Origin: an uncultured Clostridia bacterium
GTDB taxonomy: Bacteria > Bacillota > Clostridia > Christensenellales > UBA1242
Direction: 5' to 3'
DNA: 64,000 nt
NCBI GenBank assembly: GCA_947630745.1
Contig: CANRIT010000001.1
Location: 94,732-158,731 of the forward strand
Part shown: one piece after another, positions 11,358-51,989 of the stretch
How the letters are laid out: every line of letters begins with the position of its first letter
Position numbering within the stretch: position 1 is the stretch's first letter
Program-made: the position numbers and the translations under genes
The notes under the pieces: generated by a model
Told to the model about the DNA's origin: nothing
Database searches by the model: none
The model's input: only the letters and a program-made list of their open reading frames with translations

Positions 11358-12137
11358 ATGCTGTACAACAAATATTTTAAAATGCACTTTAAATCCAACA
11401 TGCAGTATCGGCTTAACACCTTGCTTATAACCTTTACACAAACGATTGTTTCGCTTGGCGAACTGCTTGTGGTGTGGGTTATGTTTCAGCAATTTAAGTC
11501 GGTTGGATATTGGGGATTTTACGAAACACTTTTGATGTTTGGCGTGATTACCACCGTGTTTGCCTTTACTGAATGTTTCGCGCGCGGATATGATGAATTT
11601 AGCAACCTTATACGGAAAGGCGATTTGGATAGACTGCTGGTTAGACCAGTGAATTTGCACTTTCAAATTTTTGCGCAGAAGATTGAATTTTGCAAACTTG
11701 GCAGAGTTGTGCTTGGCATAATTATCAGCATTATTGCAATTGTAAATTTGGGCGTAAAATGGACGGTTGCAAAGGTGTTGGTGCTTATATCGGTGTATGT
11801 GTGCGGGGTGGTGATTATTACTGGCATATTTATGCTAAGCGCGGGAATAAATGTGTTTACTGTGGATAATAACGAATTTTTAAACATTATAACAAACGGC
11901 GGAAAAGAACTTTCTTACTACCCTATTAATGTTTACAAAAAATGGCTTACCCGCTTGTTTACCTTTGTTTTCCCATTTGCTTGCTTTAACTATTTGCCTA
12001 TATCTTACATTATGGGTTACGGAAGTTTGCCACCAATAATTTACGCGCTTTCACCCCTACTTGGAAGTTTGTTTATTATTCCATGTATATTGTTCTTTAA
12101 TTTTGCAATTAAAAGATATCAGAGCACAGGTACATAA
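11358..12137 (+). CDS. ABC-2-type permease subunit (second)
   Basis: 259 aa, polytopic; starts 1 nt after the previous stop. Confidence 0.75.
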   Translation: MLYNKYFKMHFKSNMQYRLNTLLITFTQTIVSLGELLVVWVMFQQFKSVGYWGFYETLLMFGVITTVFAFTECFARGYDEFSNLIRKGDLDRLLVRPVNLHFQIFAQKIEFCKLGRVVLGIIISIIAIVNLGVKWTVAKVLVLISVYVCGVVIITGIFMLSAGINVFTVDNNEFLNIITNGGKELSYYPINVYKKWLTRLFTFVFPFACFNYLPISYIMGYGSLPPIIYALSPLLGSLFIIPCILFFNFAIKRYQSTGT

Positions 12138-12740
12138 AAAATTGGCTTTTTGTCAATTTTTTTAATTATTTATTAAATTTTGTTAATAATTTATGATTTT
12201 TTTTATTATATTTTTTAAAATTTTTTATTAAATAATCTAATTTTTACATCAAACAAAATAATTAATTGAATAAAATTTTTTTTATTAATAAACCACAAAA
12301 TAACCAATCAAAATATTCAATAATTTTATAAATTTTATTGATAAATATAATTATTTTTTTAAAATCCAAATAAATAAAATATGCCTATTTTATAGTATTT
12401 CTAATAATTATTTAATATAGTTTTTTTAATAAATATTTGTTTTTTGATTTGGAAATATTCTTAAATATCTTTTAATTAAATTGATTAAATATAATTAGTT
12501 TTTTAATAGCAATTTTATTTTTTAATTTAAATGTGATATTTAATATTTCACACCTTAAAATAATTCCAAATTTTTTATTTTATATTTTATTATCATAATC
12601 ACAAAAGCCAATTATTTTTTAATTTTAAAAATAATTTATATTATTCAATTAAAACAATTTTTTATTAAATTTTTAAAAATATTATAAATTTTTATTAAAT
12701 TTACATAATTTTTTATTATTTTTTGTGATTTTTAATTAAT
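12138..12740. other. ~600-bp ORF-free, almost pure A/T spacer between convergent genes
   Basis: No ORF of 60 aa or more in any frame. G/C occur only sporadically. Imperfect inverted 13/14-mers aattggctttttgt (12140..12153) and acaaaagccaatt (12601..12613). Confidence 0.8.
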
Positions 12741-14792: not shown

Positions 14793-15156
14793 TTGCTTCC
14801 TCCTTAACATGCGCCAAACTTATTTCAAACACTTCGCGCACATGCTGGTCGGCAAGCGAGTAAAACACCTCTTTGCCCTGCTTTCTGCTTTTTATTAAAT
14901 TCATCTCTTTAAGGTTTTGCAGTTGGTGTGACACCGCTGATTTTGTCATGTTTAATATGGACGAAATATCGCACACGCACAGTTCGCCATCATCAAGCGC
15001 GTTGATGATTTTTATTCGCGTGCTGTCAGACAACGCTTTGAAAAAATCCGCCATATCAAGCAGCGTTTCATCGTCAAGCATGCGCGATTTTGCACTTGAC
15101 ACATGGTCGGCATGAATTGTGTTGCAATCACACATTGCACATCTACATTTGGTCAT
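14782..15156 (-). CDS. ArsR/SmtB-family metalloregulator (CadC-like)
   Basis: Cys-rich N-terminus MTKCRCAMCDC, the ELCVCD metal site, and the wHTH SAVSHQLQNLKEMNLI. It overlaps the ATPase start. Confidence 0.85.
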   Translation of the reverse strand: MTKCRCAMCDCNTIHADHVSSAKSRMLDDETLLDMADFFKALSDSTRIKIINALDDGELCVCDISSILNMTKSAVSHQLQNLKEMNLIKSRKQGKEVFYSLADQHVREVFEISLAHVKEEANED

Positions 15157-15662: not shown

Positions 15663-15750
15663 GGAGAGTTGTCAGAGTGGTCGAATGTGCCGCTCTCGAA
15701 AAGCGGTAAGGTGCAAGCCTTCGGCGGTTCGAATCCGCCACTCTCCGCCA
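15663..15750 (+). tRNA. tRNA-Ser (anticodon CGA), long variable arm, encoded CCA
   Basis: Acceptor GGAGAGT/ACTCTCC; anticodon stem CCGCT/AGCGG with loop CTCGAAA; T-loop GGTTCGAATCC. Confidence 0.92.
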
Positions 15751-15851: not shown

Positions 15852-16271
15852 ATGAAAACTGTAAAGGCGGGATGTTTTTTAATAAATAAAGAAAAGGGAA
15901 CTATTGCAATAGTCTATAGGGAAAATAAAAAAGATTATTCATTCCCAAAAGGGCATTTGGAAGATGGTGAAGACATAAAAACATGTGCCTTGCGAGAGAC
16001 GGCGGAAGAAACAAAGAGGGAAGCTGAAATTGTTAAAGAATTTGATCCCTACATAGAAAGATACACAACACCAAGTGGAGAAGATTGCGTTTGCTATATG
16101 TATTTTGCATTGGATAAGGGGAAAAGCGACAACAAAAGCACAGACACTCATGAGGTGCACTGGATTCCGTTTAATGAGGTTGAAAATATATTATCTTACC
16201 CTAGTTTGAAAGAAACTTGGAATAATGTAAAAGGCAATATCCAAAAAATTTTACAATCAAAAGATTTGTAA
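15852..16271 (+). CDS. NUDIX hydrolase
   Basis: Nudix box GHLEDGEDIKTCALRETAEETKRE; AAGGAG before the ATG. Confidence 0.85.
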   Translation: MKTVKAGCFLINKEKGTIAIVYRENKKDYSFPKGHLEDGEDIKTCALRETAEETKREAEIVKEFDPYIERYTTPSGEDCVCYMYFALDKGKSDNKSTDTHEVHWIPFNEVENILSYPSLKETWNNVKGNIQKILQSKDL

Positions 16272-16396
16272 GAGATATCCATCTTTGACCAAGTCGGCAT
16301 TTCAAGCAACCCAGCCAATTTTTTTAGCTTAACATTTTCGCTTGCATCATGTTTTTTTAAATATTGTTTTTATATGTTATAATAGATTAATGATTA

Positions 16397-16636
16397 GTGG
16401 GTGTCTTAGTGGGAAGAAGAAGTCTAATTTCTATGACAACTATAAATAGACTAATTTCCGCATCAAATAGAATTAAAAGAGAAAATCACAATAAGGAATT
16501 AATAAATTTACAGGGCGGAAATGATAAGGAAAGAGATCCAATATATAAGTTGGGTAAAGTGGAAACAGAGAAGCAGTTGATTTATGAATATAATTCGCGA
16601 GATAATGGATATAATGGCACAAGCGGAAATACATAA
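16397..16636 (+). CDS. Doubtful small ORF (79 aa from GTG; 67 aa from the internal ATG)
   Basis: ORF only. Weak initiation signals and no motif. Confidence 0.2.
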   Translation: MGVLVGRRSLISMTTINRLISASNRIKRENHNKELINLQGGNDKERDPIYKLGKVETEKQLIYEYNSRDNGYNGTSGNT

Positions 16637-16642
16637 AATTGG

Positions 16643-17614
16643 CTAGTTTTGCAGGAAGAAGTGGTTTTGGGATAGAAGTGGGTAAGATTTTAGTGTGGAA
16701 GAATTTAGGTTTTCCTTAAACATGTCCACGCCAACTATTTGGCGATTGTTATATGTTGAGTAATAATAAATCCCTTTGTCTACATTGCAGCATGAAGAAT
16801 ATATTGTATGTTCAAACCCTTTTTCAACCTTACAGCAGCCTTTTTGCTGTTCAACTGCGGTTAAGATGTGGAAAAATTGATTGACGCTTTCGCATTCGTT
16901 TTCGCCACAAATTGAATTAAGCTTTGTAAATGTCGCCTTAACAAATCGAGATGCGGATGACAAATCGCCGGGCAGCCCAATTCCGCCCATTCCGCGGCTG
17001 TATGGAGTAAGGTTAAAATCTTGTGCAAACCTATTTAGCGGTTCTTCGCGCGAGGTGTTGATATAGTTGCACAAATTGGTTAGATGATAGTCAAAAGTTG
17101 GGTTGTTTGTTAGCACGCCAACTGGATTGTCGTAAATTTTTAATCCTTCTTTTACTGGCTCAACCACTATGCTTTCTTTATCGTCCGCAACAAGCCAATG
17201 CAATGGTGAATGTGGAAGCTGTGCGGAAAAATTTTCATCATAAATATTCAATTTTTCAATTGCCCTTTTTGCTTCCTTCACATTTTTGCAGGTTGTAAGA
17301 ATGAAAGGGATAAATTCAAATGGCGCAACATTATTCTTGCCCTTAATCTTTTTTGGATAGAATGCGTTGTTGGGGAAATTCAAGCCCGCCATGCTTAGCC
17401 CTTTTTCGTTTGTTGCGTCGTAATAAAGCGGATAATTGTTTTGCACAAAAGCCATGCCTATCATGGCATAATGTTTTAAATTTTTGCCCGCGCTGCGGAA
17501 ATTAAATGGATAATTTCGCGGAGTGATTGTAACTGTTTCGTTATAAGAAAATTCATAATCCAAGTTGCGCCCAAAATAATGATGCTTTGTTTTAAAAGTT
17601 AATGCTGTACACAT
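16643..17614 (-). CDS. Choloylglycine hydrolase family (bile-salt hydrolase / penicillin V acylase, Ntn hydrolase)
   Basis: Start set at MCTALTFKTKHHYFGRNLD, which puts the nucleophile Cys at position 2. GGGAGG lies 6 nt upstream. Confidence 0.85.
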   Translation of the reverse strand: MCTALTFKTKHHYFGRNLDYEFSYNETVTITPRNYPFNFRSAGKNLKHYAMIGMAFVQNNYPLYYDATNEKGLSMAGLNFPNNAFYPKKIKGKNNVAPFEFIPFILTTCKNVKEAKRAIEKLNIYDENFSAQLPHSPLHWLVADDKESIVVEPVKEGLKIYDNPVGVLTNNPTFDYHLTNLCNYINTSREEPLNRFAQDFNLTPYSRGMGGIGLPGDLSSASRFVKATFTKLNSICGENECESVNQFFHILTAVEQQKGCCKVEKGFEHTIYSSCCNVDKGIYYYSTYNNRQIVGVDMFKENLNSSTLKSYPLLSQNHFFLQN

Positions 17615-19958: not shown

Positions 19959-20612
19959 ATGAAGTTTGAAGAATTTAAAAAAATAATTAAAAGGCGCGAG
20001 GAATTGGTTAGGTTGTGGGAGAGCACTAGGAAGGATGATGACCGCAAAATAGTCAACGAAGTGGAAGAAATCAACAAGCAAATATGGGCAGTCCGTGCAT
20101 TAAATCCAGACGTGTTTAATGTGCCAGTAAACCCTTTAACATCGGCGCTTAACGCTCTTATTGACCGTTCAGAAAAAGAGGTCGATGTTGAATTTAAGAC
20201 AATGGGTGAATTTTCAAATTTAGAGTTTGTTATGGATATAATTGAACCCAATCCAAAATGCCACAGGGCGCCTTATCATCGCTATTACAAATTGGGCCCT
20301 ACTCGTATTGATGAACAAGGTAGAATCTGTGTAAATTTGGAGGCAATGTTAATTTTAAACACAATTAACTACAGACCCGATGCTGTGTACAGAATCCCTG
20401 GATTTGAAGACACTGTGTGGGAAGTTTTTGAAGAACACTTTAAATCATGCACAGAGGAACGGATCAGTTTGCTGAAAAAGATTTGTGAAAGGAACGAGGA
20501 ACAAAAACGAATTTTGTTAAACCCAGAAGCTGCAAAAAATGCCGCAAAGGAATTGGATGAAGAATCTGACGCATGCCTAGAAAAAATCCACAAACTTGAC
20601 GACCAATTATAA
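19959..20612 (+). CDS. Hypothetical protein (217 aa)
   Basis: ORF with GGAGG and an upstream TTGACA promoter (~19896). No motif recognised. Confidence 0.6.
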   Translation: MKFEEFKKIIKRREELVRLWESTRKDDDRKIVNEVEEINKQIWAVRALNPDVFNVPVNPLTSALNALIDRSEKEVDVEFKTMGEFSNLEFVMDIIEPNPKCHRAPYHRYYKLGPTRIDEQGRICVNLEAMLILNTINYRPDAVYRIPGFEDTVWEVFEEHFKSCTEERISLLKKICERNEEQKRILLNPEAAKNAAKELDEESDACLEKIHKLDDQL

Positions 20613-20614
20613 AC

Positions 20615-20646
20615 AAAAAAACGAACACCCTCTGTTCGTTTTTTGT
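20615..20646. terminator. Intrinsic terminator, stem AAAACGAAC/GTTCGTTTT (family member 3)
   Basis: 20618..20626 pairs with 20634..20642; 7-nt loop. Confidence 0.65.
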
Positions 20647-20763: not shown

Positions 20764-21642
20764 TTATAAGATAACTTCGTAATTTATATTAGCCAAATCA
20801 ACAACATAATTCATAGAAATTATCCCATCAGGTATCTTGTTATTTTTAAATTGCTTTTCCGTTATTTTAGGGAAAGTATCATCTATAGAATATTTAAAAA
20901 TATTTCTTACGATATATTTAATATATCTTTCTTTTTTCCCTTCGCTATAGCCCTTTTCATTGAGATACTCTTCCATTTGAGAAGTATCAACACCCAATTG
21001 TTTAATTATTTTCATTAGGTCGTCAATTGAATGACCGTTTTCACTTTTCTCAACCCTAGTAAATAGCAAAAACAAATTGTTGTTATTATCACTATCTAAT
21101 TGTTTTGCACTAGAAATAGTTATTTGGTTTGCTGATTTATTCAACGTTGTTTTAACTTCGTACGCCATACCATTGGCCTCTAGGTCATGTGTCCCAAAAT
21201 GCATGGCGCTCCATGTGACTTGCCCATAATTTAAATATAATTGTACGAAGCATTCTAATTCACCTATAACATCATATACCATTAATTCTTTATTATAATT
21301 TCCAATAGTTTCTTTCCATCTTTCAAACCAATTATAAGGATTATGTAATATATCTACCCTATTATCAATATTAATAAAATCAAAGGCTATGCTTAAGAAG
21401 GTATTCATTAATTTAAAATTATTACATGATAGAATTAAAACATTTTTTCCCTCTACACTCGCAGAATATAATTTGATTGAGTTAAATTTTTCATCTATTA
21501 AAATTCCACCATCATACTGCAAATAAACACCATATTCCTTCGTGCTTTTAAAAGCATAAGAATCCTTGCATTGCCTAATATGGATACTTCTCTTATTGCC
21601 ATCAATTAATTCCAAGAATATTTCTTTTAATCTATTAATCAT
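20764..21642 (-). CDS. PD-(D/E)XK-motif protein (putative nuclease), last gene of the island operon
   Basis: 292 aa. ...HFGTHDLEANGMAYEVKTTL... fits D-x(n)-E-x-K. Its context with Z1 and GHKL ATPase genes matches the recurrent neighbourhood of this family. Confidence 0.5.
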   Translation of the reverse strand: MINRLKEIFLELIDGNKRSIHIRQCKDSYAFKSTKEYGVYLQYDGGILIDEKFNSIKLYSASVEGKNVLILSCNNFKLMNTFLSIAFDFINIDNRVDILHNPYNWFERWKETIGNYNKELMVYDVIGELECFVQLYLNYGQVTWSAMHFGTHDLEANGMAYEVKTTLNKSANQITISSAKQLDSDNNNNLFLLFTRVEKSENGHSIDDLMKIIKQLGVDTSQMEEYLNEKGYSEGKKERYIKYIVRNIFKYSIDDTFPKITEKQFKNNKIPDGIISMNYVVDLANINYEVIL

Positions 21643-21655
21643 TTTATACTCCCGC

Positions 21656-22339
21656 TTAAATAGAATTTATAAGCATTGCGACATACCCTTTTATTCCGCC
21701 CTCATAAAATTCCGGTACTATTACTAAACTTCTAGCCATATGCTGAACTAATATTTTGCGAAGATATATATTTGCTTTGAGATGAGAATCTTTTCCTATT
21801 TTATTAAAATTTAAACTTGAATATTGATCTAAAATTTCTCTAAAAACATTAACATTTGTTTCATTTCCAGTTCTTTCGATGGTTTGCAAGATGGTATCGG
21901 TTGAAAAACAAGGTAGAGACAAAAATTCTAGTGTACTTTTTTTGTTTCCTTTGTTAAAAAGCTCAATATACCAAAATAATGTACTAGGATATATTCTTAC
22001 ATTCTTTTCGTAAAAATGCGACGGGTTATCGCCGTATCTATCAAAAATTATCTCAGGAATAACGCAAAGTGAAAAATATCTCCAAAAATCGTAGTTTGAT
22101 GCTAACGATTTTGTAAACGACGGAGTTTCTTTTAATAGACTCCATAATTCTATACCAAAACTTATATCTAGGTCATATAATTGTTTATTATCTTTTTTTG
22201 ACTTTTGATATTCCGCCAATAATTTAATGCGCAAATCATTTAAATCTTTAGGCAAACTCGAACTATTATTAAAATTATTGGCGCGCAATTCTTCATACTT
22301 GTTTTTTGCTTCTAACCTTGACATATATAAATTAATCAT
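21656..22339 (-). CDS. Orphan protein (~227 aa) in the island operon
   Basis: Start set at ATG 22339 (MINLYMSRLE...), with AGAGGTG ~11 nt upstream and 1 nt after the preceding stop. No motif recognised. Confidence 0.6.
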   Translation of the reverse strand: MINLYMSRLEAKNKYEELRANNFNNSSSLPKDLNDLRIKLLAEYQKSKKDNKQLYDLDISFGIELWSLLKETPSFTKSLASNYDFWRYFSLCVIPEIIFDRYGDNPSHFYEKNVRIYPSTLFWYIELFNKGNKKSTLEFLSLPCFSTDTILQTIERTGNETNVNVFREILDQYSSLNFNKIGKDSHLKANIYLRKILVQHMARSLVIVPEFYEGGIKGYVAMLINSI

Positions 22340-22340
22340 T

Positions 22341-23267
22341 CTACCAAACACCTCTTTTATCAAAATATCTCGAAACGCTATCAATTATCGATTCAATAGA
22401 ACTAACATCAAATTCTTTTGTGTCAATCATGTACTTTGCAACCTGTAAAACGCTACCCTCTTGGTAGTCAATATTTTCTAAGTTAATTAAATAATTTTCA
22501 TTTAGAAGTTTTGAAAGCAATGCGATAATCGATTGTTGAATTATCTCAATAATAAGTCTATTACAACATTTTTCATTATTAGATAAATCAATAAAAACAT
22601 AGTCTTTATGTGCGGTGTTTAAAATAATTTTAAAGGTATCTACAAACAAATCTTGTGTGGGATCGGCGAAATCCATTTTAATTTGCCACAACGGCTTTTC
22701 TTTATCGTTAATATTTATTATTGGGAACAAAGAACCTGATCCATCTACATTTATAAACAACTTTTCAATGTCACCGATAATTACACCCTGCGTGTTATTC
22801 AATGTTATTTCTGAGGGCGTTCCTGGCTTTGTTAAAACTAACTGAACATTTAACTCGATTACCCCATGAAAGGTATTTCTTGCAAATTCATTAGAGAAGG
22901 ACATAACTTGAGCGTCATTTATATTTTTAATGCTTTGAGGATTAAAAACCCCTCTTTCTTTTGATGATGAAGATTTCCATGTAACAACCATAGAAATTTC
23001 TGAATCTCCATTTGCAATTCCGTCCGAACCATACAAAATGCATGCATTGGTTAATGATAATCCCAAGTCTACATTTAAACCATATTCTTCCATATTCCAT
23101 AGCCCATCACTAGAATCTAAAGAATATTGATTCCCTTCCTTTTTAAGACTCAATTCTTTGATTTTGCCTTGATCATTATATTTGGCATTTAATGCTAATT
23201 CAATATTTAACAGTTCTTTTTGTTTGTTAGATAATACTTTAAATAAACTTAATCTATAAGGTCTCAT
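22341..23267 (-). CDS. Orphan protein (~308 aa) in the island operon
   Basis: Start set at ATG 23267 (MRPYRLSL...) after GAGGAGG; it overlaps the upstream stop by 14 nt. No motif recognised. Confidence 0.6.
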   Translation of the reverse strand: MRPYRLSLFKVLSNKQKELLNIELALNAKYNDQGKIKELSLKKEGNQYSLDSSDGLWNMEEYGLNVDLGLSLTNACILYGSDGIANGDSEISMVVTWKSSSSKERGVFNPQSIKNINDAQVMSFSNEFARNTFHGVIELNVQLVLTKPGTPSEITLNNTQGVIIGDIEKLFINVDGSGSLFPIININDKEKPLWQIKMDFADPTQDLFVDTFKIILNTAHKDYVFIDLSNNEKCCNRLIIEIIQQSIIALLSKLLNENYLINLENIDYQEGSVLQVAKYMIDTKEFDVSSIESIIDSVSRYFDKRGVW

Positions 23268-25296
23268 TTTCAATAACCTCCTCAATATAAGTTTCTAAGC
23301 CCGCTTGATATTTATTATCATTTATGGAAATGAATAACGAAATATTAAGTTTGCATTTACTAAACCCATTGTTTATAATTTTATATTTATAAATTTTATT
23401 TGATTTAGTTGCTTCATATTCAATTTTACAAGCGCCATTTGTGTTTTGTAGATTTTTATCTAAAGTTATCTTATAATTGTTCAATGCGGTATTATCGCAG
23501 TCGGTAAAAATAATAAACCCTTTTTTAATTTCAAACATTGCGGGTAGGCCATTCTTTTCTTCCCATTCAGGTATCGGCATATTTCTTTCCGAGGTCGGAA
23601 CAACCAAGCTAAAGCTAATTGATGAAAATTTTCTAAAACAGTTCACATCAAATACAACCCTCATTCCATCTTTTTCGTAAGTGGGTTCTCCAACTAAACT
23701 TATTGTTGTTGATTTGCTTTTAGAAATTGTGTTGTGGGTTCTTCCTCTTTCGTCAATAGAGCTTTCCTTGCCATAATTGTATGTCGGCAAAAGATCTGCA
23801 AATTTTTTGCCTAGACATCTATTTGTAACAATTTCATCAATCGTAGAATTTTTTTCAAGATAGGTTTCTTTTAAGGTCATTCCAACTTCGTTCATTATTT
23901 GACCCACTAATAGTTTTGGCTTTTTATTTTCCATGAGCGGGTCTGCCCACGATGTGTGATCGGCTTTTTCACTTCTTCTAACATAATCTTCGAGGGACAT
24001 GTCATATTCTTTAATCTTATTTTTTGAATTTAGAACAAACAATCCGAGTATAAAATCGCTCCCTCCAGAAACCCCCGAGCCTACCCAATTACCTGAGATT
24101 TCATATGAAACTATCATGCCGGGTTTTCTACAATATGCCACTATTGGGGGATTGGAGCTATCCGCGTCACGTTTTAAGTTTAAATATGAAAATGGCGACG
24201 GTAGATTATCATAGCTAAAATCACCACTCATTTTTAACTGGCTACGGCTCAATTTAACAAATGCAAACTTGCCCAATTCTTTATCTTCTAAATCTCTAGT
24301 CCGCTCAATGCTTTTTAACTGTATACCATTTTGGATGTCACCCGTTATTGCGCATTCATATAATTTGCTAAACCATTCAAATATAGGGGAGGAAGATGAA
24401 AGATCTATTCGTTTGTCATTTACATATACTTCGAGTTTGGGCCCAAGATTGTATTTGCTGTTTATTCTAGGGAAATACCACCTAAGGAGTGACATACTAA
24501 TTGAGTCAGGTACGGTTTTATCCCAAAATAGATTGTCGCGATATTCAAATCCATTAGACATTAATATTTGTTCTTCTTCTATAAAAGGTATAATAATGAC
24601 AGTACCGGTTTCGGCGTCCTTGTATGGTGCTATATTGAAAATTTTTAGAACTTTACGTATAAAGTTCACATCGCAAACGACATTCGGCTTACCATTTATT
24701 ATTTCTCCAAAATATGTAATTCCCAAATAGCCGTCTTTGGTTATTAACCTATCTTCTTTTTCATCGTCTTCAACAAGAGAAGAAATTATCCTTTCTTCAT
24801 AAGTTCCATCGCCGTTTTTAATTCTAGAATAGTATATGACTAGGCCCTGTCCTAATCTATAATATACAGTTTTTCCAATACCCCAACAACCGCCAGCTCC
24901 TTCTCTAGTTTGTGCATGCATAATTTGGAAAACCAGCTTGCCGAGGTTTTGATTTTCTTCTTTGGCAGAGAATAATCCGTTTTTATTACCTATTAAACCG
25001 GTTGTGTTTTTATCTGATACACTTATAAATTTATTTTTATTAAAATATTTACTCTTAATTGGTGCTTCTATTTCGTTATAGCATTCAGCAAGTTTGTTTA
25101 TATCAAAAGTGTTATATATAAAATCTACTCGTACTAGGTTAGAATCAGGCAATGCGGCGTCGAGACTATTTTGTATTGATTCCCTCACAAAGAGATCAAG
25201 AACAGGCGTTTCATTGTTTTGCATTAACTTTAACAGAGCGCCCCCAGAGGTTTGCATATAATCTTGCTCTAATGATTTTGAATCAAATTTATTCAT
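23254..25296 (-). CDS. GHKL-superfamily ATPase (HATPase_c_3 / prokaryotic MORC-like)
   Basis: N-box ...FVRESIQNSLDAA...; glycine-rich GGCWGIGKTVYY. ~680 aa with a large uncharacterised C-terminal half. ATG 25296 follows GGAGG. Confidence 0.7.
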   Translation of the reverse strand: MNKFDSKSLEQDYMQTSGGALLKLMQNNETPVLDLFVRESIQNSLDAALPDSNLVRVDFIYNTFDINKLAECYNEIEAPIKSKYFNKNKFISVSDKNTTGLIGNKNGLFSAKEENQNLGKLVFQIMHAQTREGAGGCWGIGKTVYYRLGQGLVIYYSRIKNGDGTYEERIISSLVEDDEKEDRLITKDGYLGITYFGEIINGKPNVVCDVNFIRKVLKIFNIAPYKDAETGTVIIIPFIEEEQILMSNGFEYRDNLFWDKTVPDSISMSLLRWYFPRINSKYNLGPKLEVYVNDKRIDLSSSSPIFEWFSKLYECAITGDIQNGIQLKSIERTRDLEDKELGKFAFVKLSRSQLKMSGDFSYDNLPSPFSYLNLKRDADSSNPPIVAYCRKPGMIVSYEISGNWVGSGVSGGSDFILGLFVLNSKNKIKEYDMSLEDYVRRSEKADHTSWADPLMENKKPKLLVGQIMNEVGMTLKETYLEKNSTIDEIVTNRCLGKKFADLLPTYNYGKESSIDERGRTHNTISKSKSTTISLVGEPTYEKDGMRVVFDVNCFRKFSSISFSLVVPTSERNMPIPEWEEKNGLPAMFEIKKGFIIFTDCDNTALNNYKITLDKNLQNTNGACKIEYEATKSNKIYKYKIINNGFSKCKLNISLFISINDNKYQAGLETYIEEVIENETL

Positions 25297-28045
25297 AATC
25301 ACCCTCCTCTTCAGGCTCGATAACAGGTTTAACCATCAAGGCCTCAGAATAGCTATTTCCAACTTTCCCGCCAGGAATGTTTATAGCAATTCCCACAATG
25401 TTAATAGGAGAATTTAAGTTCGTTGTTGTTTTGCTATCAGGCTCGGCCTTAGAGTCTTTATCAACTATGTAGATTATTAATTCGGAGATCATGGATAAAC
25501 CTAAGCTGTCTCTTATTTTGGATATTTCTTCAGTATTAGAGATTTTTAGTTTTTCTAATGTTTCGTCTGTTAATTTTGATTTTTCAATATCTGCGTAAAG
25601 ATCTGCTGGATTTCTTAATGCCCCTATTCGAATAATTCCATCGTCATCATCTTTCTTTCTAGCACGGTTAACCGTTCCTATAATATGTCCATTTAAATCT
25701 TGCATGTTATGTGAATTGTTTTTTCCGGATATCACAACATTCCATGTTTTAAGCTTGTCATCTGAAACGACTTTATTAAACCATGCCTCCATTGTTTCGA
25801 TATCAATAAAAGTTGAGCATGGAGGTAATTCAAGTTTTTTCATATATTGAAAGATAATGCTATGATTAATATTCCTCCAAATAAATTTATCATTACCAAT
25901 TTCTACGCTTCTGATATTATCAAGTTGTTTGATGAAATCATTAGTTTCTTTTAAATTGTTTTTAAGTTTTTCTTTATCGTCATAAAATGTTGTAGTTTGA
26001 TTTTTTGCTCCAGTATAGTTCAGATCCACTTCGATAGCTCGTTGCATTTTCTTTTTTGCAGTCAACAACATCCAGCTTGGCTTTGGTGTGTTTTTAACTT
26101 TAATACCATAATACTTTGGCTTTAAGTTTGCACCATCTAAATTTTGCATTGATTTTTTTAATTGCAAATCTAGACTTGATAAAAATTTAAACTTATCTTC
26201 AGTGTCATAACTCATCCATACTCTTGGTAATAACTCATATTGTTTTCTAAATCCGAACCATCTACCCATTTGCATTAGGGTATCTGCTTGTTTTACCGTT
26301 CTTAAAAAATACGTGCTCACCAATCCTTCAATCGTTAAACCTCTAGAAAGAGTGGCTCCCCCGATAACTATAAATGCTGTTGCAAAATCGATACCGGAAT
26401 CTTTGTCAGGGTATGCCAATCTTAAAAAATATTTATCTTTTGTCCCAACATTATTGTGGCCATTATCCACACACAAATGAACGCCTTTTGTATATGTTAA
26501 AGTTTTATCCTCATCCATCAATATTTTTTGCATTGGTGAACCAATAAGCGTTTTGATAATATCTTTTATTTCATTAAAATTAGGATAATCTTTTATGTTT
26601 TCGCCGCCATAATTTTTATAGCTTTTATAAAATGACTCTATGTCCAGTTTAGAAGTTTGCTCTTCCCAAACTTTCTTGCATTGTGCAATAAAATGATTTT
26701 TGTTAACCGTACTTAAATAATCTTCTATAATACTGCTCATAACTTCGTGTGAAGCGACTAGTTGGCTGGTGTGAATTAATAAACTGATCGGTTTGTTAAA
26801 CTTCCACAATCTAAAACATGCGACACAACAATAGAACCAATATATGGAATCAAGTAACGATTTAGGAAGGTCTCCTGCTTCGCCCTTTTCAATACTTCTA
26901 ATTTTTTTAATTTCGTTTTTTGTAATGTGATTAATAATATTTAAAGGCTCTATGTCTTCAGATCCAAATATTTGTTGAGGTCCGAAATACTCATTTGGGG
27001 ATTTTAAAACAGCAACAAAATCATCCGGAAACATTGTATAGGGATTGTTTTCATCGCCTGGGTTTTCGTTTAGAATATTCGCATAAGGAGTCGCGGTATA
27101 GCCTATGTAATTCATACATCGATAGTTTATTTCTTGTCGTTCGCCGTCAATAGATAAATCATAGATTAAGTTTGTAACTGCTTTATTTATTGCCGTCTTT
27201 TCTTTGCTTTCAAGGTTTGCTGAATTTATCCCTGCTTGATCCGCCTCATCATCTATTAACAAAATTTTCATTTGTTTCTTTTTATTCTTGTCTCTATTAA
27301 GCCATTTAATTAGATTTTTTAAACGAGTAGAATTTTTTAAACAAACAGTAAAATATCTAGTATTTGACTCATCATTCAAGTACAATTGATCAGGTTGGGT
27401 TCCTCCGCCGCCGACCTTAACATTATCTAAACATTGCCAATTAATATTGGCAGTTTCGTTGTGCAAATCTTTTAAAAACCTTTTTTGAGTTTGTATGCGC
27501 AAATTTTCAATAGTACCCGATAAAACTATAAAAAAATTCCAACCAACATCTGCAGCCATTGACATGAGCGCTGCCATATTTGCAGTTTTCCCCGATTGCA
27601 CATTACCAATAACTAAACCCTTAATCGGCTGTCCTGGTAAAGTTGAGATTTTCAGCCTGTTTAAAATTCTATGAGTAGTACTTTCAATGGTTTCAACAGA
27701 ATCCTCTTTGAATCCGCTTTTGAGTAATTTATCCTTATATGCAACCCACATATTTGATGGAGATGTTGGGATCTTAAAATAGTCCCCGCCATCATTTTTG
27801 GGAATTATATATGGACCAATATTAAGAATAGAACTCTCTTTCTCGTTCTCTTTTTGTCTATCACAAAGAAAGAGCCATTCTTCACTGCTAATATCCCAAA
27901 AATCATTCACGCGGTGGCTTTGAAGAAAAGACTCTAATCCATTTGAATTATTTCCATTACAAATATCATCCCACGATAATCCTTTACATCTTGCATTTTT
28001 TATCCATTCTCTAGCTTGATTATACTTACTAAGCGAAAAATTCAT
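25289..28045 (-). CDS. Z1-domain protein (P-loop / SF2-helicase-like NTPase)
   Basis: GNVQSGKTANMAAL (Walker A), LLIDDEADQAG (DEAD-like), GYTATPYANIL, GATLSRGLTIEGL, DTLMQMGRWFGFR (Z1 hallmark). 918 aa. Confidence 0.75.
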   Translation of the reverse strand: MNFSLSKYNQAREWIKNARCKGLSWDDICNGNNSNGLESFLQSHRVNDFWDISSEEWLFLCDRQKENEKESSILNIGPYIIPKNDGGDYFKIPTSPSNMWVAYKDKLLKSGFKEDSVETIESTTHRILNRLKISTLPGQPIKGLVIGNVQSGKTANMAALMSMAADVGWNFFIVLSGTIENLRIQTQKRFLKDLHNETANINWQCLDNVKVGGGGTQPDQLYLNDESNTRYFTVCLKNSTRLKNLIKWLNRDKNKKKQMKILLIDDEADQAGINSANLESKEKTAINKAVTNLIYDLSIDGERQEINYRCMNYIGYTATPYANILNENPGDENNPYTMFPDDFVAVLKSPNEYFGPQQIFGSEDIEPLNIINHITKNEIKKIRSIEKGEAGDLPKSLLDSIYWFYCCVACFRLWKFNKPISLLIHTSQLVASHEVMSSIIEDYLSTVNKNHFIAQCKKVWEEQTSKLDIESFYKSYKNYGGENIKDYPNFNEIKDIIKTLIGSPMQKILMDEDKTLTYTKGVHLCVDNGHNNVGTKDKYFLRLAYPDKDSGIDFATAFIVIGGATLSRGLTIEGLVSTYFLRTVKQADTLMQMGRWFGFRKQYELLPRVWMSYDTEDKFKFLSSLDLQLKKSMQNLDGANLKPKYYGIKVKNTPKPSWMLLTAKKKMQRAIEVDLNYTGAKNQTTTFYDDKEKLKNNLKETNDFIKQLDNIRSVEIGNDKFIWRNINHSIIFQYMKKLELPPCSTFIDIETMEAWFNKVVSDDKLKTWNVVISGKNNSHNMQDLNGHIIGTVNRARKKDDDDGIIRIGALRNPADLYADIEKSKLTDETLEKLKISNTEEISKIRDSLGLSMISELIIYIVDKDSKAEPDSKTTTNLNSPINIVGIAINIPGGKVGNSYSEALMVKPVIEPEEEGDYE

Positions 28046-28055
28046 AATTAACTCC

Positions 28056-29180
28056 TTACTCTAAAGCACCCAATTGTATAAGCTGTTTTATTATTTCCAT
28101 TAAGACATCAACCACAATAGAGTTTCCTGCCTGTTGATAAGCCATGTTTTTTGAAACGACAATTTCATAATCGTCAGTAAACCCCATTAACCGGTGAGCT
28201 TCTCTTTCCGTTAGCTGTCTATATTTTTTTGCGGACTCATCAACCGTTATATAATTATCAATGCCAGCTCTATGATGATTTCCCATTGTTTTTAATAGTG
28301 TTCTAGCTATGCGCAGGTCCATTTCCGGCTTTTGATAAAAATCTTTTGTGCCTCCTTGCAATACGTAATTTAAGACACCTGGCGTGAGTTCATATTTTGT
28401 AGAAACTTCCCCGCCATTCTTTTTAATGACTAAATCTCCATTGGCATTAAATGTAAAACATCCTTCTTTCGAGTTGTTTATTAAAAAGTCCTGTAATGAA
28501 TATTTTAATTCTTTTTTCCCCAATTTTTGAAAATCGAAAGTTATATTTTTTTTTATTCCAACAACAAACAACCTTCTTCTATTTTGCGGGATGCCGAAAT
28601 CGGCGGCATTAATAATTTCTGAAGATATATTATAACCCAAAGATTTAAAAGCGGCTTCAACAATTTTCCAAGTATTCCCTTTGTTGTGCCTTTTTAAATG
28701 ACGGACATTTTCGTAAATAAATACTTTTGGTTGAATTTCTTTAACAAGTCTTAAATATTCAAAGAATAAATTTCCACGCGGATCATCTAATCCGACCTGG
28801 AGGCCTATAGATGAAAAACTTTGACAAGGGCTTCCACCGACGAACAAATCTACTTTATCACGAAAGTCAGTGCCATCTAGCAGGGAAATATCTTGGAAAA
28901 AATAGCCATTTTTAAGTTCTTTTTTATAATTGTGCTCATAACTTTTTTGCATAAAATTGGCTTTTCGTGTCTTTTGACGATAGAGTTCATCAACATAATT
29001 TTTCTTTTCTAGAGGATTTGATAATTTTTTTACAATTTTAAATTCTTTTTTTGTCTCTATATCAATATCTCTTTCTCCATTATCACAAGCAAAGACAACT
29101 TCATAGTCAATGTGCAATCGTCTCAAAGCGAACTCAATCGCTCCAATTCCACTAAAAACTGTGGCTAATTTCAATTTCAT
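28056..29180 (-). CDS. DNA (cytosine-5)-methyltransferase, second of a tandem pair
   Basis: FSGIGAIE (motif I), GGSPCQSFS (IV), ENVRHL (VI), QNRRRLF (VIII), QAGNSIVV (X). Confidence 0.9.
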   Translation of the reverse strand: MKLKLATVFSGIGAIEFALRRLHIDYEVVFACDNGERDIDIETKKEFKIVKKLSNPLEKKNYVDELYRQKTRKANFMQKSYEHNYKKELKNGYFFQDISLLDGTDFRDKVDLFVGGSPCQSFSSIGLQVGLDDPRGNLFFEYLRLVKEIQPKVFIYENVRHLKRHNKGNTWKIVEAAFKSLGYNISSEIINAADFGIPQNRRRLFVVGIKKNITFDFQKLGKKELKYSLQDFLINNSKEGCFTFNANGDLVIKKNGGEVSTKYELTPGVLNYVLQGGTKDFYQKPEMDLRIARTLLKTMGNHHRAGIDNYITVDESAKKYRQLTEREAHRLMGFTDDYEIVVSKNMAYQQAGNSIVVDVLMEIIKQLIQLGALE

Positions 29181-30248
29181 TTATAAGACCTCATTAATTT
29201 TTTTTAATATTTCAACTAGAACATCAACGACAATAGAATTTCCTGCTTGTCTATAAGCCTGCATGTCGGGAACAACATTTTTAAAATGCTTAAACCCCAT
29301 TAATTTAAAACATTCATTTGGCGTCAACTTTCTTACCAAACCCATATCGCCATTATAATTACCAACATAAGCTCCGTCTTGTATTGCTTTGTCGTGTTTA
29401 TGTTTGTCTAGATGTTCGAAAACAAAGTCCCCATTCCAATTATATTGTTGATTTGCTTTTTGAGTTTGTATAATTTTTCTATTTATTCTAGCCCTATGCG
29501 GATTGGTGGTAACAAATTCAAATCCTTTTTCTTTTAGGTAATATTTAGCGTCAACTTCTTCATCCAAAAAATCTTTTAGGGATGTGGTTAGTTTTTTCGG
29601 CTTCGGGAATTCAAAATTAGTTTTTTTGTTTTTGAAACCCACGACATACAATCTTTTTCTATTTTGCGGAATGCCAAAATCAGCAGCGTTAAGTAGTGCT
29701 TTAAAAATCTTATATCCCAAAGAATCGAAAATGTCTTGTATATGCTTCCATGTTTTTCCATCGTCATGGCTTAACATGCCCGGAACATTTTCATACAAAA
29801 AAACTTTTGGTTTAATTTCCGTAATTAATCTTGCAAAATCATAAAACAATGTTCCTCTAGCATCCTCTAGGCCGGCTCTTTTACCTATAACAGAAAAACT
29901 TTGACAGGGGCTTCCGCCAACAAATAAATCTACTTTGTTTTTAAAAAGATTTCCATTTATAAACCTAATATCTTCAAACCAATTATCATCGCTGATGTTA
30001 TAGTTTGCAAAGTAAGACTCCTTCACAAAATTTCTTTTACCCTTACCAAAGTATAGCGTACTAATGTATTTTTGTTTTTCTTTTTCATTCATTCCCCTAG
30101 TTTCATTTTCAACGTCCTCTTTTGTTTTATTAATTTCTCTTTCGCCAGTGTCGCATGCAAAAACAATTTCTTGATTTTTTTCCCCATAAACTTTGGAAAC
30201 GGCTGTCTCTATAGAACCAATACCGCTAAAAACAGTTGCAATTCTCAT
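29181..30248 (-). CDS. DNA (cytosine-5)-methyltransferase, first of a tandem pair
   Basis: FSGIGSIE, GGSPCQSFS, ENVPGML, QNRKRLY, QAGNSIVV. The target-recognition region differs from the downstream paralog. Confidence 0.9.
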   Translation of the reverse strand: MRIATVFSGIGSIETAVSKVYGEKNQEIVFACDTGEREINKTKEDVENETRGMNEKEKQKYISTLYFGKGKRNFVKESYFANYNISDDNWFEDIRFINGNLFKNKVDLFVGGSPCQSFSVIGKRAGLEDARGTLFYDFARLITEIKPKVFLYENVPGMLSHDDGKTWKHIQDIFDSLGYKIFKALLNAADFGIPQNRKRLYVVGFKNKKTNFEFPKPKKLTTSLKDFLDEEVDAKYYLKEKGFEFVTTNPHRARINRKIIQTQKANQQYNWNGDFVFEHLDKHKHDKAIQDGAYVGNYNGDMGLVRKLTPNECFKLMGFKHFKNVVPDMQAYRQAGNSIVVDVLVEILKKINEVL

Positions 30249-30249
30249 T

Positions 30250-30681
30250 TTATAACTCCATTTCTTTGATTTTTTTAAATCTTATATTTTTATTTGGAAT
30301 GTCTAGCACCAACAAAACGTCTTCGTTGGTCAATGACTCCATTTGTTCTAATAAAAATGCGTTAAATAAATCATACATTACAGGATCATCTCCTATTTTA
30401 ATTTGCAACTGTTGCTGCTTGGATATTTTTAAATAAACTTTGCAAGTTATTCCATAACCAGACATGGTAAAAATTTTCCCATCGAATTGGGAAATGTTTT
30501 TTAGCTTAAATATAGAGCATAGCATTTTTTCGCTTTCTTTATTTCCAACAATACCACAATATAAGCTATTATCAGAAGATATTTTTAATAAATTTGATTT
30601 GGAAGGTTTTCTAGCAATTACACATTTTTCGACATCATAATACCATACCAATTTTGAATTTAAACTGATACTTTCTATCAT
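30250..30681 (-). CDS. Orphan protein (143 aa), first gene of the island operon
   Basis: ATG 30681 follows AAGGGGA. The stop abuts the first methyltransferase start (1-nt gap). No HTH or other motif recognised. Confidence 0.55.
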   Translation of the reverse strand: MIESISLNSKLVWYYDVEKCVIARKPSKSNLLKISSDNSLYCGIVGNKESEKMLCSIFKLKNISQFDGKIFTMSGYGITCKVYLKISKQQQLQIKIGDDPVMYDLFNAFLLEQMESLTNEDVLLVLDIPNKNIRFKKIKEMEL

Positions 30682-30754
30682 TTGTTAATCCCCTTGTTTT
30701 TTAATATAATTTCTATCCATAAATAAAAAGCTGATTATACTTTCTAACCAAAAT

Positions 30755-30783
30755 ATTATAGTATAATATTTTAAAAATGTAAA
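30755..30783 (-). promoter_or_regulatory. Candidate island-operon promoter TTTACA-17-TATAAT
   Basis: Minus strand: TTTACA 30783..30778, TATAAT 30760..30755, ~70-nt leader to ATG 30681. Confidence 0.45.
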
Positions 30784-31017
30784 ATATATTTAGCCTTTAT
30801 TAAATAAAATAAATCTTTATAATGCTTAAAATTATTAGAATCTTGTTTTTTAATTATCTAGAAAGTCCACGTTGCATCTCTAACATAAATTATATCTATT
30901 ATCTGTAATAAAGTCAATTGATTTTTATAACAACATTGCCGTTATCGGAAATGTTGTTGTACGTAGTCTTTAGGTCTTTATTTTGGAAATATATAAACGA
31001 ATGCGGGATAAGGGTGT

Positions 31018-31046
31018 TTGCAAAATGGGGGAAGATGTGGTATAAT
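31018..31046 (+). promoter_or_regulatory. Promoter TTGCAA-17-(TGn)TATAAT, 6 nt before ATG 31053 (leaderless geometry)
   Basis: TTGCAA 31018..31023, TATAAT 31041..31046, ggcggt, ATG 31053. Confidence 0.55.
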
Positions 31047-31052
31047 GGCGGT

Positions 31053-32432
31053 ATGGTGGCGGGGATGAAGAAGATTATTATATTTGTGGTGGTGATTGTG
31101 GCGATTGTTGCCAGCGTGGGCGGTGCTGTGGGATTGTATTTTTCCGACCTGAAAACGGTGGCTTTTGCCGACACGGATGAAGTGCTGTTAAATCCCGGAA
31201 AAGGGTTTGTGGACTACGGCAACGCGCTTTTTAATGGCGGCAGAGATTACATTACGGTGGGCTATCATCGGTTTAATTGGGCGGATTTGGAAGAGGTTGA
31301 AGGCGAAATTAACTTTGCCAAAATTGACGATTGGCTGGATACATATGTTAAGCGCGGCAAAAAATTTGCTTTTGGGGTTATGTGTGTAAACACATCTTCC
31401 AGCAAGGAATATATTACGCCTAAATATGTTTTTGATAAGGGCGCAAAAAGTTACGATGCTCTACTTGACGGCGGAACATATCAAAAAGTGCCAGATTGGA
31501 AAGACGAGATATATTTAAGTTGCGTAAACAAATTTGTTGCTGCGTTGGGCGCGCGATATAACGGCAACAAAAACATTGCTTTTGTGGATATTTTGTCGTA
31601 CGGAAATTGGGGCGAGCAGCATTTGTTCCATTTGGATGTTGACGACCCAGACTATATGAAAAACCAAAAAATTACCCCCGGGTTTTTGAAAGAAAAATAT
31701 GTAAAACCATACATGGAAGCCTTCCCCGACACGCTGTTGTTTAACCCGTGGGGAGAAAAGGATTTTAATGATGTCTACCTTGAACTTGTTGACGAGGGGG
31801 TAAGTTTAAGGCGCGATGGCATTGTAAGTTACACAAACGGCTTAGATATACTTGCAAAATGTTATGGCAAACTTCCCGTTGTGTTTGAATATGCAGGCAA
31901 CTATGACGACTATATCCCCGACCGCGAGCAGTATTTCAACCAAAGGCTGCAAGAGGCGATAAACATTGCCAAGCCTTCTTACATCGAACTTGATTTGGAT
32001 TGGTTTAACAACAACAAAGACTATTGCGCCGAACTTGCAAACAAAATGGGGTATTATTTTAGGCTGAAAAAGGCACAATATCGCAAAAATATCAGCCGCA
32101 GCAAAAAATCCACCATAAAGCTAACTTTTGCAAATGACGGCATTGCCCCTATTTATGAAAACTGCTTGGTTTATATTGGTTTGCTTGACAAGGATGGCAA
32201 TTTGGTTGAAAAATATCTAACCGACCTAAACCCAAAAACATGGCTACCAAATAGGCAAGTCACCCAATCTGTGTCCGTGTTGTTTGGCAAAAAAATTAAG
32301 ACAGGCAATTACACTTTGGCGGTTGGTTTGTTTGAAAATGCAACGGATGAAAAACCTACCTATTTGTTGGGTAGCGAAGGCAAAAATGCGGACAATTGGT
32401 ATTTGCTTGGCGATGTAAAAATTAAAAAATAA
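31053..32432 (+). CDS. Membrane-anchored or secreted glycoside-hydrolase-like protein (DUF4832/DUF4874-like; tentative)
   Basis: MVAGMKKIIIFVVVIVAIVASVGG signal/anchor, then LLNPGKGFVDYGN...RFNWADLEEVEGEINF. Start is 31053, or alternatively 31065. The TTG at 30918 in the track is rejected. Confidence 0.5.
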   Translation: MVAGMKKIIIFVVVIVAIVASVGGAVGLYFSDLKTVAFADTDEVLLNPGKGFVDYGNALFNGGRDYITVGYHRFNWADLEEVEGEINFAKIDDWLDTYVKRGKKFAFGVMCVNTSSSKEYITPKYVFDKGAKSYDALLDGGTYQKVPDWKDEIYLSCVNKFVAALGARYNGNKNIAFVDILSYGNWGEQHLFHLDVDDPDYMKNQKITPGFLKEKYVKPYMEAFPDTLLFNPWGEKDFNDVYLELVDEGVSLRRDGIVSYTNGLDILAKCYGKLPVVFEYAGNYDDYIPDREQYFNQRLQEAINIAKPSYIELDLDWFNNNKDYCAELANKMGYYFRLKKAQYRKNISRSKKSTIKLTFANDGIAPIYENCLVYIGLLDKDGNLVEKYLTDLNPKTWLPNRQVTQSVSVLFGKKIKTGNYTLAVGLFENATDEKPTYLLGSEGKNADNWYLLGDVKIKK

Positions 32433-51974: not shown

Positions 51975-51989
51975 ACCTTTTCCTTTTTG

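Follow-up and report, generated by a model that had tools for sequence, protein, structure and literature searches.

A candidate paraMORC2/Z1-class restriction-modification operon with paired cytosine methyltransferases in an uncultured Clostridia bacterium

The 64,000-nucleotide stretch of contig CANRIT010000001.1 (assembly GCA_947630745.1, uncultured Clostridia bacterium) that was analysed here, called the window throughout, carries at positions 20764-30681 of its minus strand a block of eight tightly packed open reading frames (ORFs). The block combines two DNA methyltransferase genes with genes for a Z1 helicase-like ATPase, a GHKL ATPase and a predicted nuclease, and is described below as a candidate restriction-modification (R-M) operon. 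Its genes were named g1 to g8 in the order of transcription.

Layout and gene content of the operon

The eight ORFs and their junctions were re-derived and agreed with those of a first-pass annotation, which had been made from the sequence of the window alone. The features of the region, in window coordinates, are the following:

30250..30681, minus strand: g1, 143 amino acids; conserved small protein that travels with the methylase module
29181..30248, minus strand: g2 (M1), 355 amino acids; C5-cytosine DNA methyltransferase
28056..29180, minus strand: g3 (M2), 374 amino acids; C5-cytosine DNA methyltransferase, paralogue of M1
25289..28045, minus strand: g4, 918 amino acids; DEAD-Z1 superfamily 2 (SF2) helicase-like ATPase, predicted translocase on double-stranded DNA
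23254..25296, minus strand: g5, 680 amino acids from the ATG; GHKL ATPase with transducer domain and C-terminal beta-sandwich, paraMORC2-like
22341..23267, minus strand: g6, 308 amino acids from the ATG; conserved core subunit, N-terminal beta-sandwich and C-terminal helical bundle
21656..22339, minus strand: g7, 227 amino acids from the ATG; core subunit of the DUF6339 family
20764..21642, minus strand: g8, 292 amino acids; DUF4420 PD-(D/E)XK protein, predicted effector nuclease
30889..30917, minus strand: distal promoter-like site, TTGACT-17-TATAAT, 11/12 match; candidate operon promoter
30755..30783, minus strand: proximal promoter-like site, TTTACA-17-TATAAT, 11/12 match; candidate operon promoter
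20616..20644, both strands: bidirectional terminator-like hairpin, 12-bp stem with T-runs on each strand

The genes g1 and g2 are separated by 1 nucleotide, g2 and g3 abut, and 10 nucleotides lie between g3 and g4; g4 and g5 overlap by 8 nucleotides (ATG at 25296) and g5 and g6 by 14 (ATG at 23267), and gaps of 1 and 13 nucleotides separate g6 from g7 (ATG at 22339) and g7 from g8, respectively. A purine run resembling a Shine-Dalgarno sequence precedes every ATG start from g1 to g8, as had been claimed for most of the genes, and the ATG starts of the first-pass annotation are therefore favoured over the longer TTG or GTG starts of the ORF list. The two best promoter-like matches of the region both fall in the 230-bp AT-rich gap upstream of g1. 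Since promoter-like sites were no commoner in the real than in shuffled sequence (58 versus 55), the case for a promoter rests on position and not on count. About 120 nucleotides past g8, the terminator-like hairpin closes both the operon and a convergent ORF, and an Rfam scan found no RNA family within or near the operon. The packing and these signals suggest that the eight genes form one transcription-unit-like block.

The G+C content of the operon is 31.9%, compared to 37.4% in the rest of the window, and its flanks consist of housekeeping genes, with mnmG and mnmE on one side and genes for a GNAT acetyltransferase, a DUF1015 protein and a choloylglycine hydrolase on the other. A low-G+C block amid housekeeping genes, the operon has the appearance of a chromosomal island, in a Bacillota genome of gut type. 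The convergent ORF that shares the hairpin with g8 (19959-20612, plus strand, 217 amino acids) had no Pfam match. At the other end, the ORF at 30918-32432 (plus strand, 504 amino acids) codes for a DUF4832 protein, and the TTG start of its longest version adjoins the distal promoter-like site.

Both genes annotated as C5-cytosine methyltransferases in the first pass were recovered as such. The product of g2 matches PF00145 (DNA_methylase) at 7.5e-70 and TIGR00675 with 235 bits, carries the motifs FSGIG (residue 7), PCQ (114), ENV (153), QNRKR (195) and GNS (336), and has M.HhaI as its closest solved structure (5e-44). The product of g3 matches PF00145 at 8.8e-68 and likewise has a complete set of the five catalytic motifs (FxGxG, PCQ, ENV, QxRxR and GNS). 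The two proteins are 39% identical, with an alignment that collapses at about residues 225-320. Judged by these motifs and this alignment, M1 and M2 are predicted to be catalytically complete, M.HhaI-like paralogues with different target-recognition regions.

The hallmark motifs noted at first reading in three further genes, those of a Z1 NTPase, a GHKL ATPase and a D...E.K nuclease, were also borne out. The g4 product matches the Z1 family (PF10593) at 4e-51 and the PADLOC Helicase_II model at 3e-31, and contains a Walker A motif (GNVQSGKT, residue 147), DEAD (266), TATP (317) and the motif-VI-like sequence DTLMQMGRWFG (588). The passages of Iyer, Abhiman and Aravind (2008, Biol Direct 3:8) on the Z1 helicase family give DThhQXuRhFG as its signature. 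The g8 product matches DUF4420 (PF14390) at 1e-29; across 23 homologues E128, D153 and K164 are invariant and E162 is nearly so, and g8 is thus predicted to be a PD-(D/E)XK protein with an intact E-D-ExK site.

No Pfam family was matched by g5 or by 41 aligned members of its family, which comprises at least 924 clusters. The GHKL motifs ESIQNSLDA (39), DKNTTG (95) and GGCWGIGK (135) are invariant in this family, with E39, N43, D46, A47, D95 and G135-K142 as invariant residues, and so are E443 and H447. In an AlphaFold2 model of g5 (predicted local distance difference test, pLDDT, 81.7) a C-terminal beta-sandwich follows the GHKL and transducer domains, and the top Foldseek matches of this model were Hsp90, topoisomerase VI-B and the ATPase module of SMCHD1 (E 3e-8 to 1e-6). 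At the level of the predicted model, the GHKL fold was thus confirmed by AlphaFold2 and Foldseek. The sequence EKADH at residues 443-447 is an ExxxH motif, the hallmark of paraMORC2; according to the passages on this group in Iyer et al. (2008, Biol Direct 3:8), paraMORC2 proteins combine a GHKL domain with an S5-type domain bearing ExxxH and occur mainly in Gram-positives and cyanobacteria. The g5 product is therefore described as paraMORC2-like, on the basis of motif and distribution and not of a direct alignment with the sequences of Iyer et al.

The only PADLOC match of g5 was a weak N-terminal one to PDC-M33A (38 bits, residues 36-195), which was also found in 40 of the 41 aligned family members; no other gene of the operon matched an M33 model, and a literature search on PDC-M33 found nothing. 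A tblastn search with g5 against 72,556 plasmid and 50,697 phage records gave no match.

Related loci, conserved core and accessory genes

Relatives of the operon were collected by a scan with the g5 alignment, taking one genome per species. Of the 135 relatives confirmed in this way, 80 loci from about 80 species were kept (numbered with the prefix L), and their gene content was determined by phmmer comparison of the eight window proteins with all ORFs of each locus. Most hosts are Bacillota (Lachnospiraceae, Bacillaceae, Paenibacillus, Planococcus, Streptococcus, Staphylococcus and lactobacilli), the exceptions being one Xylanibacter genome (Bacteroidota) and one archaeal metagenome-assembled genome (MAG) of Methanobrevibacter.

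The genes for Z1, g5, g6 and g7 are colinear, in this order, in 72 of the 80 loci, and the recurrence of this order in dozens of species indicates an operon pattern beyond chance. The other eight loci are without at least one of the four core genes; several of these contigs are short, and those of L009 and L027 stop within g5 or just past it. A g8 (DUF4420) gene was detected in 63 loci. In 40 loci a Dcm gene stands between g7 and g8, and many of these have another one, from a different subfamily, after g8; 73 loci have at least one same-strand Dcm gene no more than about 4 kb away from the core. Dcm genes of both main types were sampled by eye and keep the PCQ cysteine, the sample leaving aside a minority of ORFs with weaker Dcm similarity. 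Dcm proteins of about 560-600 amino acids were also seen (L029:7917-9605, and in L030, L051, L059, L063 and L070); the C-terminal extension of the L029 protein, the one inspected, reads like a Vsr endonuclease, i.e. a methylase-repair fusion.

The nuclease gene is exchanged in one part of the family. In a clade of Lactobacillales and Staphylococcus, 14 "in-cluster" ORFs of about 300-350 amino acids occupy the DUF4420 slot, and all five of these that were scanned are NgoFVII-type PLD proteins (L053:13544-14452, L072:13645-14610, L074:13643-14689, L075:13678-14697 and L083:13575-14555), two of them also showing a B3-like domain. Both nuclease types are present in L046, with the NgoFVII-type PLD at 15989-16990. 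The occurrence of PLD and B3 domains in the DUF4420 slot ties the family to the biochemically characterised restriction enzymes with a Z1 motor, CglI and NgoAVII.

Among the same-strand neighbours across the family, Vsr is the commonest (17), followed by AIPR (5), and HNH, EcoRII and FokI-cleavage domains were found as well. As four genes stay constant and the nuclease and methylases are swapped, the invariant unit is therefore Z1, paraMORC2, g6 and DUF6339. The gene contents suggest that nuclease and methylases are exchangeable modules, and that AIPR and Vsr are optional additions not replaced by g6 and g7. The first-pass annotation had proposed the opposite, namely that two orphan genes had been swapped in for AIPR and Vsr, but g6 and g7 belong to the conserved core and occur together with both. 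ORFs of about 720-770 amino acids lie directly upstream of Z1 in five loci (L038:2270-4576, L009:3129-5294, L017:4936-7134, L037:4976-7144 and L069:1403-3616) and are probably the five AIPR/AIPR_N matches of the pooled Pfam scan.

Three genes, g1, g6 and g7, had been called orphans, a description that holds for g1 as a rare protein and fails for the other two. An exhaustive HMMER search found 512 cluster representatives of g6 (50% clustering, E <= 1e-3), and the matches listed are all of about 300-320 amino acids apart from three fragments. No Pfam family was found in 45 members of the g6 family. The AlphaFold2 model of g6 (pLDDT 91.1) shows a beta-sandwich followed by a helical bundle, and in related loci the gene is always located between g5 and g7. 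The g7 product of the window is itself below the Pfam threshold for DUF6339, but its homologues in L001 (51% identical), L085 and L088 carry PF19866, and 8 of 30 family members match DUF6339; g7 was therefore assigned to this family by transitive homology.

The possibility that g6 and g7 together represent a split AIPR protein was considered and rejected, since PF10592/AIPR_N was matched by none of the 45 g6-family and none of the 30 g7-family members, and five related loci carry a full AIPR gene alongside both. An hhalign comparison in which the AIPR protein of Rhizobium etli p42f was set against the profiles of g6 and g7 was negative, but of low power, as the positive control (g5 versus the p42f GHKL protein) was negative too.

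The g1 product, the sole rare protein of the operon, had no match in Pfam, PADLOC, NCBIfam or the PDB that passed the cut-off. It has nine homologues, with the invariant motif R..P.KSNL....SDNSLY.G. A divergent Vsr was considered for its similar size and rejected, as g1 has neither a Vsr match nor a Vsr-like motif. The window belongs to a subclade (L001, L003/L005, L085, L088 and L089, contig extent permitting, and more distantly L015, L020 and L078) that is marked by g1 and by a tandem pair of HhaI-like Dcm genes, in most cases upstream of Z1; in L015, g1 is fused to an extra N-terminal domain, and in L078 it is located after g8. In L086 (18-2983) and L087 (115-3080), a 142-amino-acid homologue of g1 stands ahead of a Dcm gene split into ORFs of 167 and 231 amino acids, followed by uncharacterised genes for 369 and 79 amino acids, the first of them unrelated, with no Z1 machine. 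The g1 protein may thus be mobile between systems, partnering either the methylase module or another restriction enzyme.

Proposed function and alternatives

The operon probably encodes a multi-subunit, nucleoside triphosphate (NTP)-dependent R-M system of the paraMORC2/Z1 class, of the kind listed as "Type I" by Miller et al. (2022). The co-operonic, ATP-dependent restriction-like system linked to 5-methylcytosine (m5C) that the first-pass annotation had proposed is thereby supported in its main lines. M1 and M2 would methylate the host DNA and so mark it as self, each acting either on one strand of an asymmetric site or on a site of its own; as the site read by CglI-type enzymes is asymmetric, the pair may be divided between the two strands. 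Where the DNA is unmethylated, the Z1 motor would translocate along the double strand, by analogy with H.CglI, for which ATP-driven translocation and collision license cleavage. The GHKL dimer would be a clamp or switch gated by ATP, like those of MutL, MORC and topoisomerase VI-B. Because g6 and g7 accompany Z1 and GHKL whichever nuclease type is present, they would be part of the motor or regulatory complex and not of the nuclease. The DUF4420 protein g8 would cut the DNA and probably contribute to sequence recognition, and g1 would belong to the methylase or control module.

Several points weigh against this interpretation. Co-transcription was inferred from packing and signals, and the roles of g1, g6 and g7 were inferred from position only. 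Sequence searches of the PDB gave nothing significant for g1, g4, g5 (single sequence and profile), g7 and g8, and no recognisable sequence-reading domain was identified in any subunit of the window version. For g6, the fold searches (PDB and viral models) turned up no more than generic beta-sandwich proteins such as PDE6D and UNC119, with template-modelling (TM) scores below about 0.5, and these were rejected as functional leads. Five non-truncated loci (L040, L044, L045, L066 and L073) are without a same-strand Dcm gene within about 4 kb of the core, and in L045 and L066 both strands are free of Dcm genes to a distance of 5 kb; L040, L044, L045 and L066 may be methylase-less or rearranged versions. 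No experimental study of the exact architecture was found in the literature, in which subscription journals were thinly covered. Methylation may not be the sole self/non-self signal either, because the defence system MzaABCDE, in keeping with its described domain layout, is not known to use a methylase of its own. Concerning the loci without a nearby Dcm gene, a Vsr-like gene was noted near the core in L040 and L044, and insertion sequence (IS)-like ORFs in L044.

The most probable of the alternatives, although we consider it unlikely, is a methylation-independent, Mza-like defence that would sense foreign DNA or infection, to which the Dcm pair would be merely adjacent, as orphan methylases, an R-M remnant, or an anti-restriction or epigenetic device. 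MzaABCDE, not known to have a methylase, contains the same three hallmark domains and was validated with phage, with no growth arrest, and the few related loci without a nearby Dcm gene fit such a scheme. The methylase module is also portable, as g1 and Dcm stand beside an unrelated 369-amino-acid gene in L086 and L087, and its position varies across loci, from upstream of the core to inside or downstream of it. Yet this inside position, between g7 and g8 in 40 of the 80 loci, places Dcm within the effector block itself, 73 loci keep a Dcm gene close by on the same strand, and M2 of the window ends 10 nucleotides before Z1. Moreover, the commonest neighbour, Vsr, is a repair enzyme that compensates for m5C deamination, and nucleases of the swapped-in type are known from restriction enzymes paired with methylases.

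A second alternative concerns the state of the window copy. In four relatives (L001, L003, L088 and L090), the operon is headed by a 72-amino-acid HTH_3/HTH_26 gene that overlaps the start of g1, and upstream of this helix-turn-helix (HTH) gene lie two TTTACAnnTGTAAA palindromes and a TATAAT box (L088:9650-10007, L001:580-937 and L003:2235-2592). This arrangement resembles the classic controller-protein layout of R-M systems, with operator-like repeats. The corresponding segment of the window (30682-30920) contains neither an HTH gene nor TTTACAnnTGTAAA repeats; it is an unrelated AT-rich stretch with the two strong promoter-like sites, and similarity to the close relatives begins only at the ribosome-binding site of g1. 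The window copy thus appears to have lost its controller and operators. It could on these grounds be a decaying or domesticated copy that is misregulated, silent, or kept only for its methylases. We give this little credence, as all eight ORFs are full length compared to their homologues and have intact catalytic motifs, the new upstream region offers two promoter-like sites matching at 11 of 12 positions, and most of the distant relatives in the family are also without such an HTH gene.

Slightly less probable still is a repair module for m5C-linked damage, in which the GHKL protein, helicase and nuclease would correspond to MutL, UvrD and MutH/Vsr, respectively, and act on T:G mismatches or other methylase lesions: Vsr is often adjacent, Dcm-Vsr fusions occur, and passages of Iyer et al. 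(2008, Biol Direct 3:8) draw a parallel between MutL/UvrD/MutH-Vsr and the GHKL/helicase/nuclease operons, but the distribution is patchy, island-like and low in G+C over distant taxa including an archaeal MAG, the nuclease slot accepts a restriction-type PLD+B3 nuclease, genes for AIPR and for EcoRII, HNH and FokI-cleavage domains occur nearby, the closest relatives with a tested function act in restriction or defence, and Vsr is absent from the operon of the window and its immediate flanks.

Within the R-M interpretation, a bolder version may be put forward, which we hold only tentatively and think rather doubtful. Z1, paraMORC2, g6 and DUF6339 would form a four-protein chassis with two ATPases, a distinct class of NTP-dependent restriction machinery in which translocase and clamp license whichever site-specific nuclease is plugged in, DUF4420 or NgoFVII-type PLD+B3. 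The SF2 translocase and the GHKL clamp would then cooperate, for example by trapping or compacting loops of unmethylated DNA, as eukaryotic MORC proteins do, and g1 would add a layer of methylase-linked control in the subclade of the window. If true, MORC function would have a prokaryotic, ancestor-like context, and the R-M types would extend beyond the present scheme of Types I-IV.

The system is of interest as it joins two unrelated ATP-driven DNA machines, a Z1 motor and a MORC-like GHKL clamp, with a nuclease and a methylase pair, and as many Bacillota of gut and soil have it, among them species of Streptococcus, Staphylococcus and Bacillus. A working example would show the role of the bacterial MORC-like ATPases, with a bearing on the origin of the eukaryotic MORC silencing factors, and would test how far the translocation-collision mechanism of CglI extends to larger assemblies. 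It would also add to the defence catalogues a recurrent barrier to transformation and phages in gut Firmicutes.

Some features elsewhere in the window were noted. At 12001-13000 the G+C content dips sharply to 19.8%, with no Rfam match there; the dip lies around a gap of about 600 bp between the ORFs at 11358-12137 (plus strand) and 12741-14810 (minus strand, heavy-metal P-type ATPase). ARAGORN predicts a tRNA-Ser(cga) at 15663-15750 (plus strand), which the Rfam tRNA model did not report at its gathering threshold. Two adjacent giant ORFs at 46785-58187 (minus strand), of 1729 amino acids (10 MBG_2 and 3 YDG repeats) and 2065 amino acids (Big_2 repeats), likely encode surface or adhesin proteins, and beside them at higher coordinates, i.e. 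upstream on the minus strand, are a 535-amino-acid ORF without Pfam match and an ABC ATPase gene.

Comparison with known systems

The closest description of the operon is the "Type I" candidate defence system of Miller, Stern and Burstein (2022, Nat Commun 13:5731, Suppl. Table 11), a prediction without experiment. It comprises five proteins and a cytosine methyltransferase, is often found near repair endonucleases and is widespread in bacteria. Its subunits agree in size with those of the window: 925 and 918 amino acids, respectively, for Z1, 704 and 680 for the MORC-like protein (HHpred non-significant), 298 and 292 for DUF4420, 231 and 227 for DUF6339, and 310 and 308 for an unannotated protein (hypo.clst.8286106), which g6 resembles by its size and its lack of annotation, the match being by description only. 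The likeness as a whole is one of families and sizes as described, not of directly compared sequences. Unlike the described system, with its single methylase, that of the window has a tandem HhaI-like pair ahead of Z1, the additional 143-amino-acid g1, and no adjacent repair endonuclease (Vsr). On this basis, the operon appears to be a Miller "Type I" system with a second methylase and g1.

The operons of paraMORC GHKL ATPase, Z1 helicase family, E-D-ExK nuclease, Dcm and Vsr genes that are set out in passages of Iyer et al. (2008, Biol Direct 3:8), and proposed there to be R-M systems, fit the window as well. The shared features are ExxxH (EKADH 443), DTLMQMGRWFG 588, an E-D-ExK nuclease, Dcm and the Gram-positive distribution, Vsr in the neighbourhood being a feature of the relatives of the window. 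The passages on these operons do not single out g6 or DUF6339 as core subunits. A new variant set apart by orphan genes, as first proposed, is therefore not supported: the architecture was already predicted in 2008 and 2022, the window holds a minor sub-variant, and the discovery is incremental. By gene content, the sub-variant consists of tandem upstream HhaI-like methylases and g1, with no controller, Vsr or AIPR. The first-pass annotation had allowed that its orphans might prove to be well-characterised families of a named system; g6 and g7 are indeed catalogued families of a described candidate system, but not well characterised, and PADLOC has no models for them, nor for the GHKL protein g5 beyond the weak PDC-M33A match. 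The exchange of the nuclease slot for a CglI-type nuclease, the constancy of the four-gene core and the g1/controller module may go beyond the literature.

The layout that the first reading took as usual, GHKL-Z1-DUF4420-AIPR, is that of Rhizobium etli plasmid p42f (Miller "Type II"), with a divergent Dcm and Vsr. It shares with the window a Z1 protein, a PD-(D/E)XK motif protein and a GHKL ATP-binding protein, but has a 496-amino-acid GHKL protein upstream of Z1, a 691-amino-acid AIPR downstream and no g6 or g7, and its Z1 is only about 29% identical to that of the window.

The same annotation knew of no biochemistry or phage challenge for such systems, in agreement with the searches on the exact architecture, but for the wider class this is out of date, as MzaABCDE has been tested with phage and the motor of CglI/NgoAVII has been dissected. 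MzaABCDE, reportedly named in Gao et al. 2020, combines Z1, a DUF4420 PD-(D/E)XK protein and a GHKL-type ATPase in one operon, as in the window, whereas its gene order is different and it has AIPR (MzaE) and MzaA, and neither g6 nor DUF6339. The operon was rejected as an MzaABCDE system, since g4 and g8 score far under the NCBIfam cut-offs for MzaC (NF041933, 221 bits, cut-off 1500) and MzaD (NF041934, 62 bits, cut-off 420), PADLOC found no MzaB match in g5 or its 41 aligned family members, and AIPR, MzaA and MzaE had no match in any of the eight proteins (Pfam, PADLOC and NCBIfam). The distantly related system protects E. coli from T4, with no growth arrest, and MzaD cuts DNA in vitro (bioRxiv 10.1101/2022.06.16.496414).

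Like the window operon, CglI and NgoAVII pair a DEAD-Z1 helicase-like subunit with an m5C methylase. BceSIV is another ATP-dependent restriction enzyme alongside these two. CglI is encoded by only three genes (M, R and H), forms an R2H2 complex and has no GHKL ATPase, g6, DUF6339 or DUF4420; its H subunit has 632 amino acids, compared to 918 for g4, and the R subunit of CglI/NgoAVII is a PLD and B3-like protein, absent from the window, where the nuclease is of the PD-(D/E)XK type. H.CglI, a DEAD-Z1 translocase on double-stranded DNA, hydrolyses about 170 ATP per second. The PLD+B3 R subunit needs this hydrolysis to cut at the asymmetric site GCCGC, and after site recognition and translocation it does so on collision. 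By analogy, CglI/NgoAVII would be the best mechanistic template for the operon of the window.

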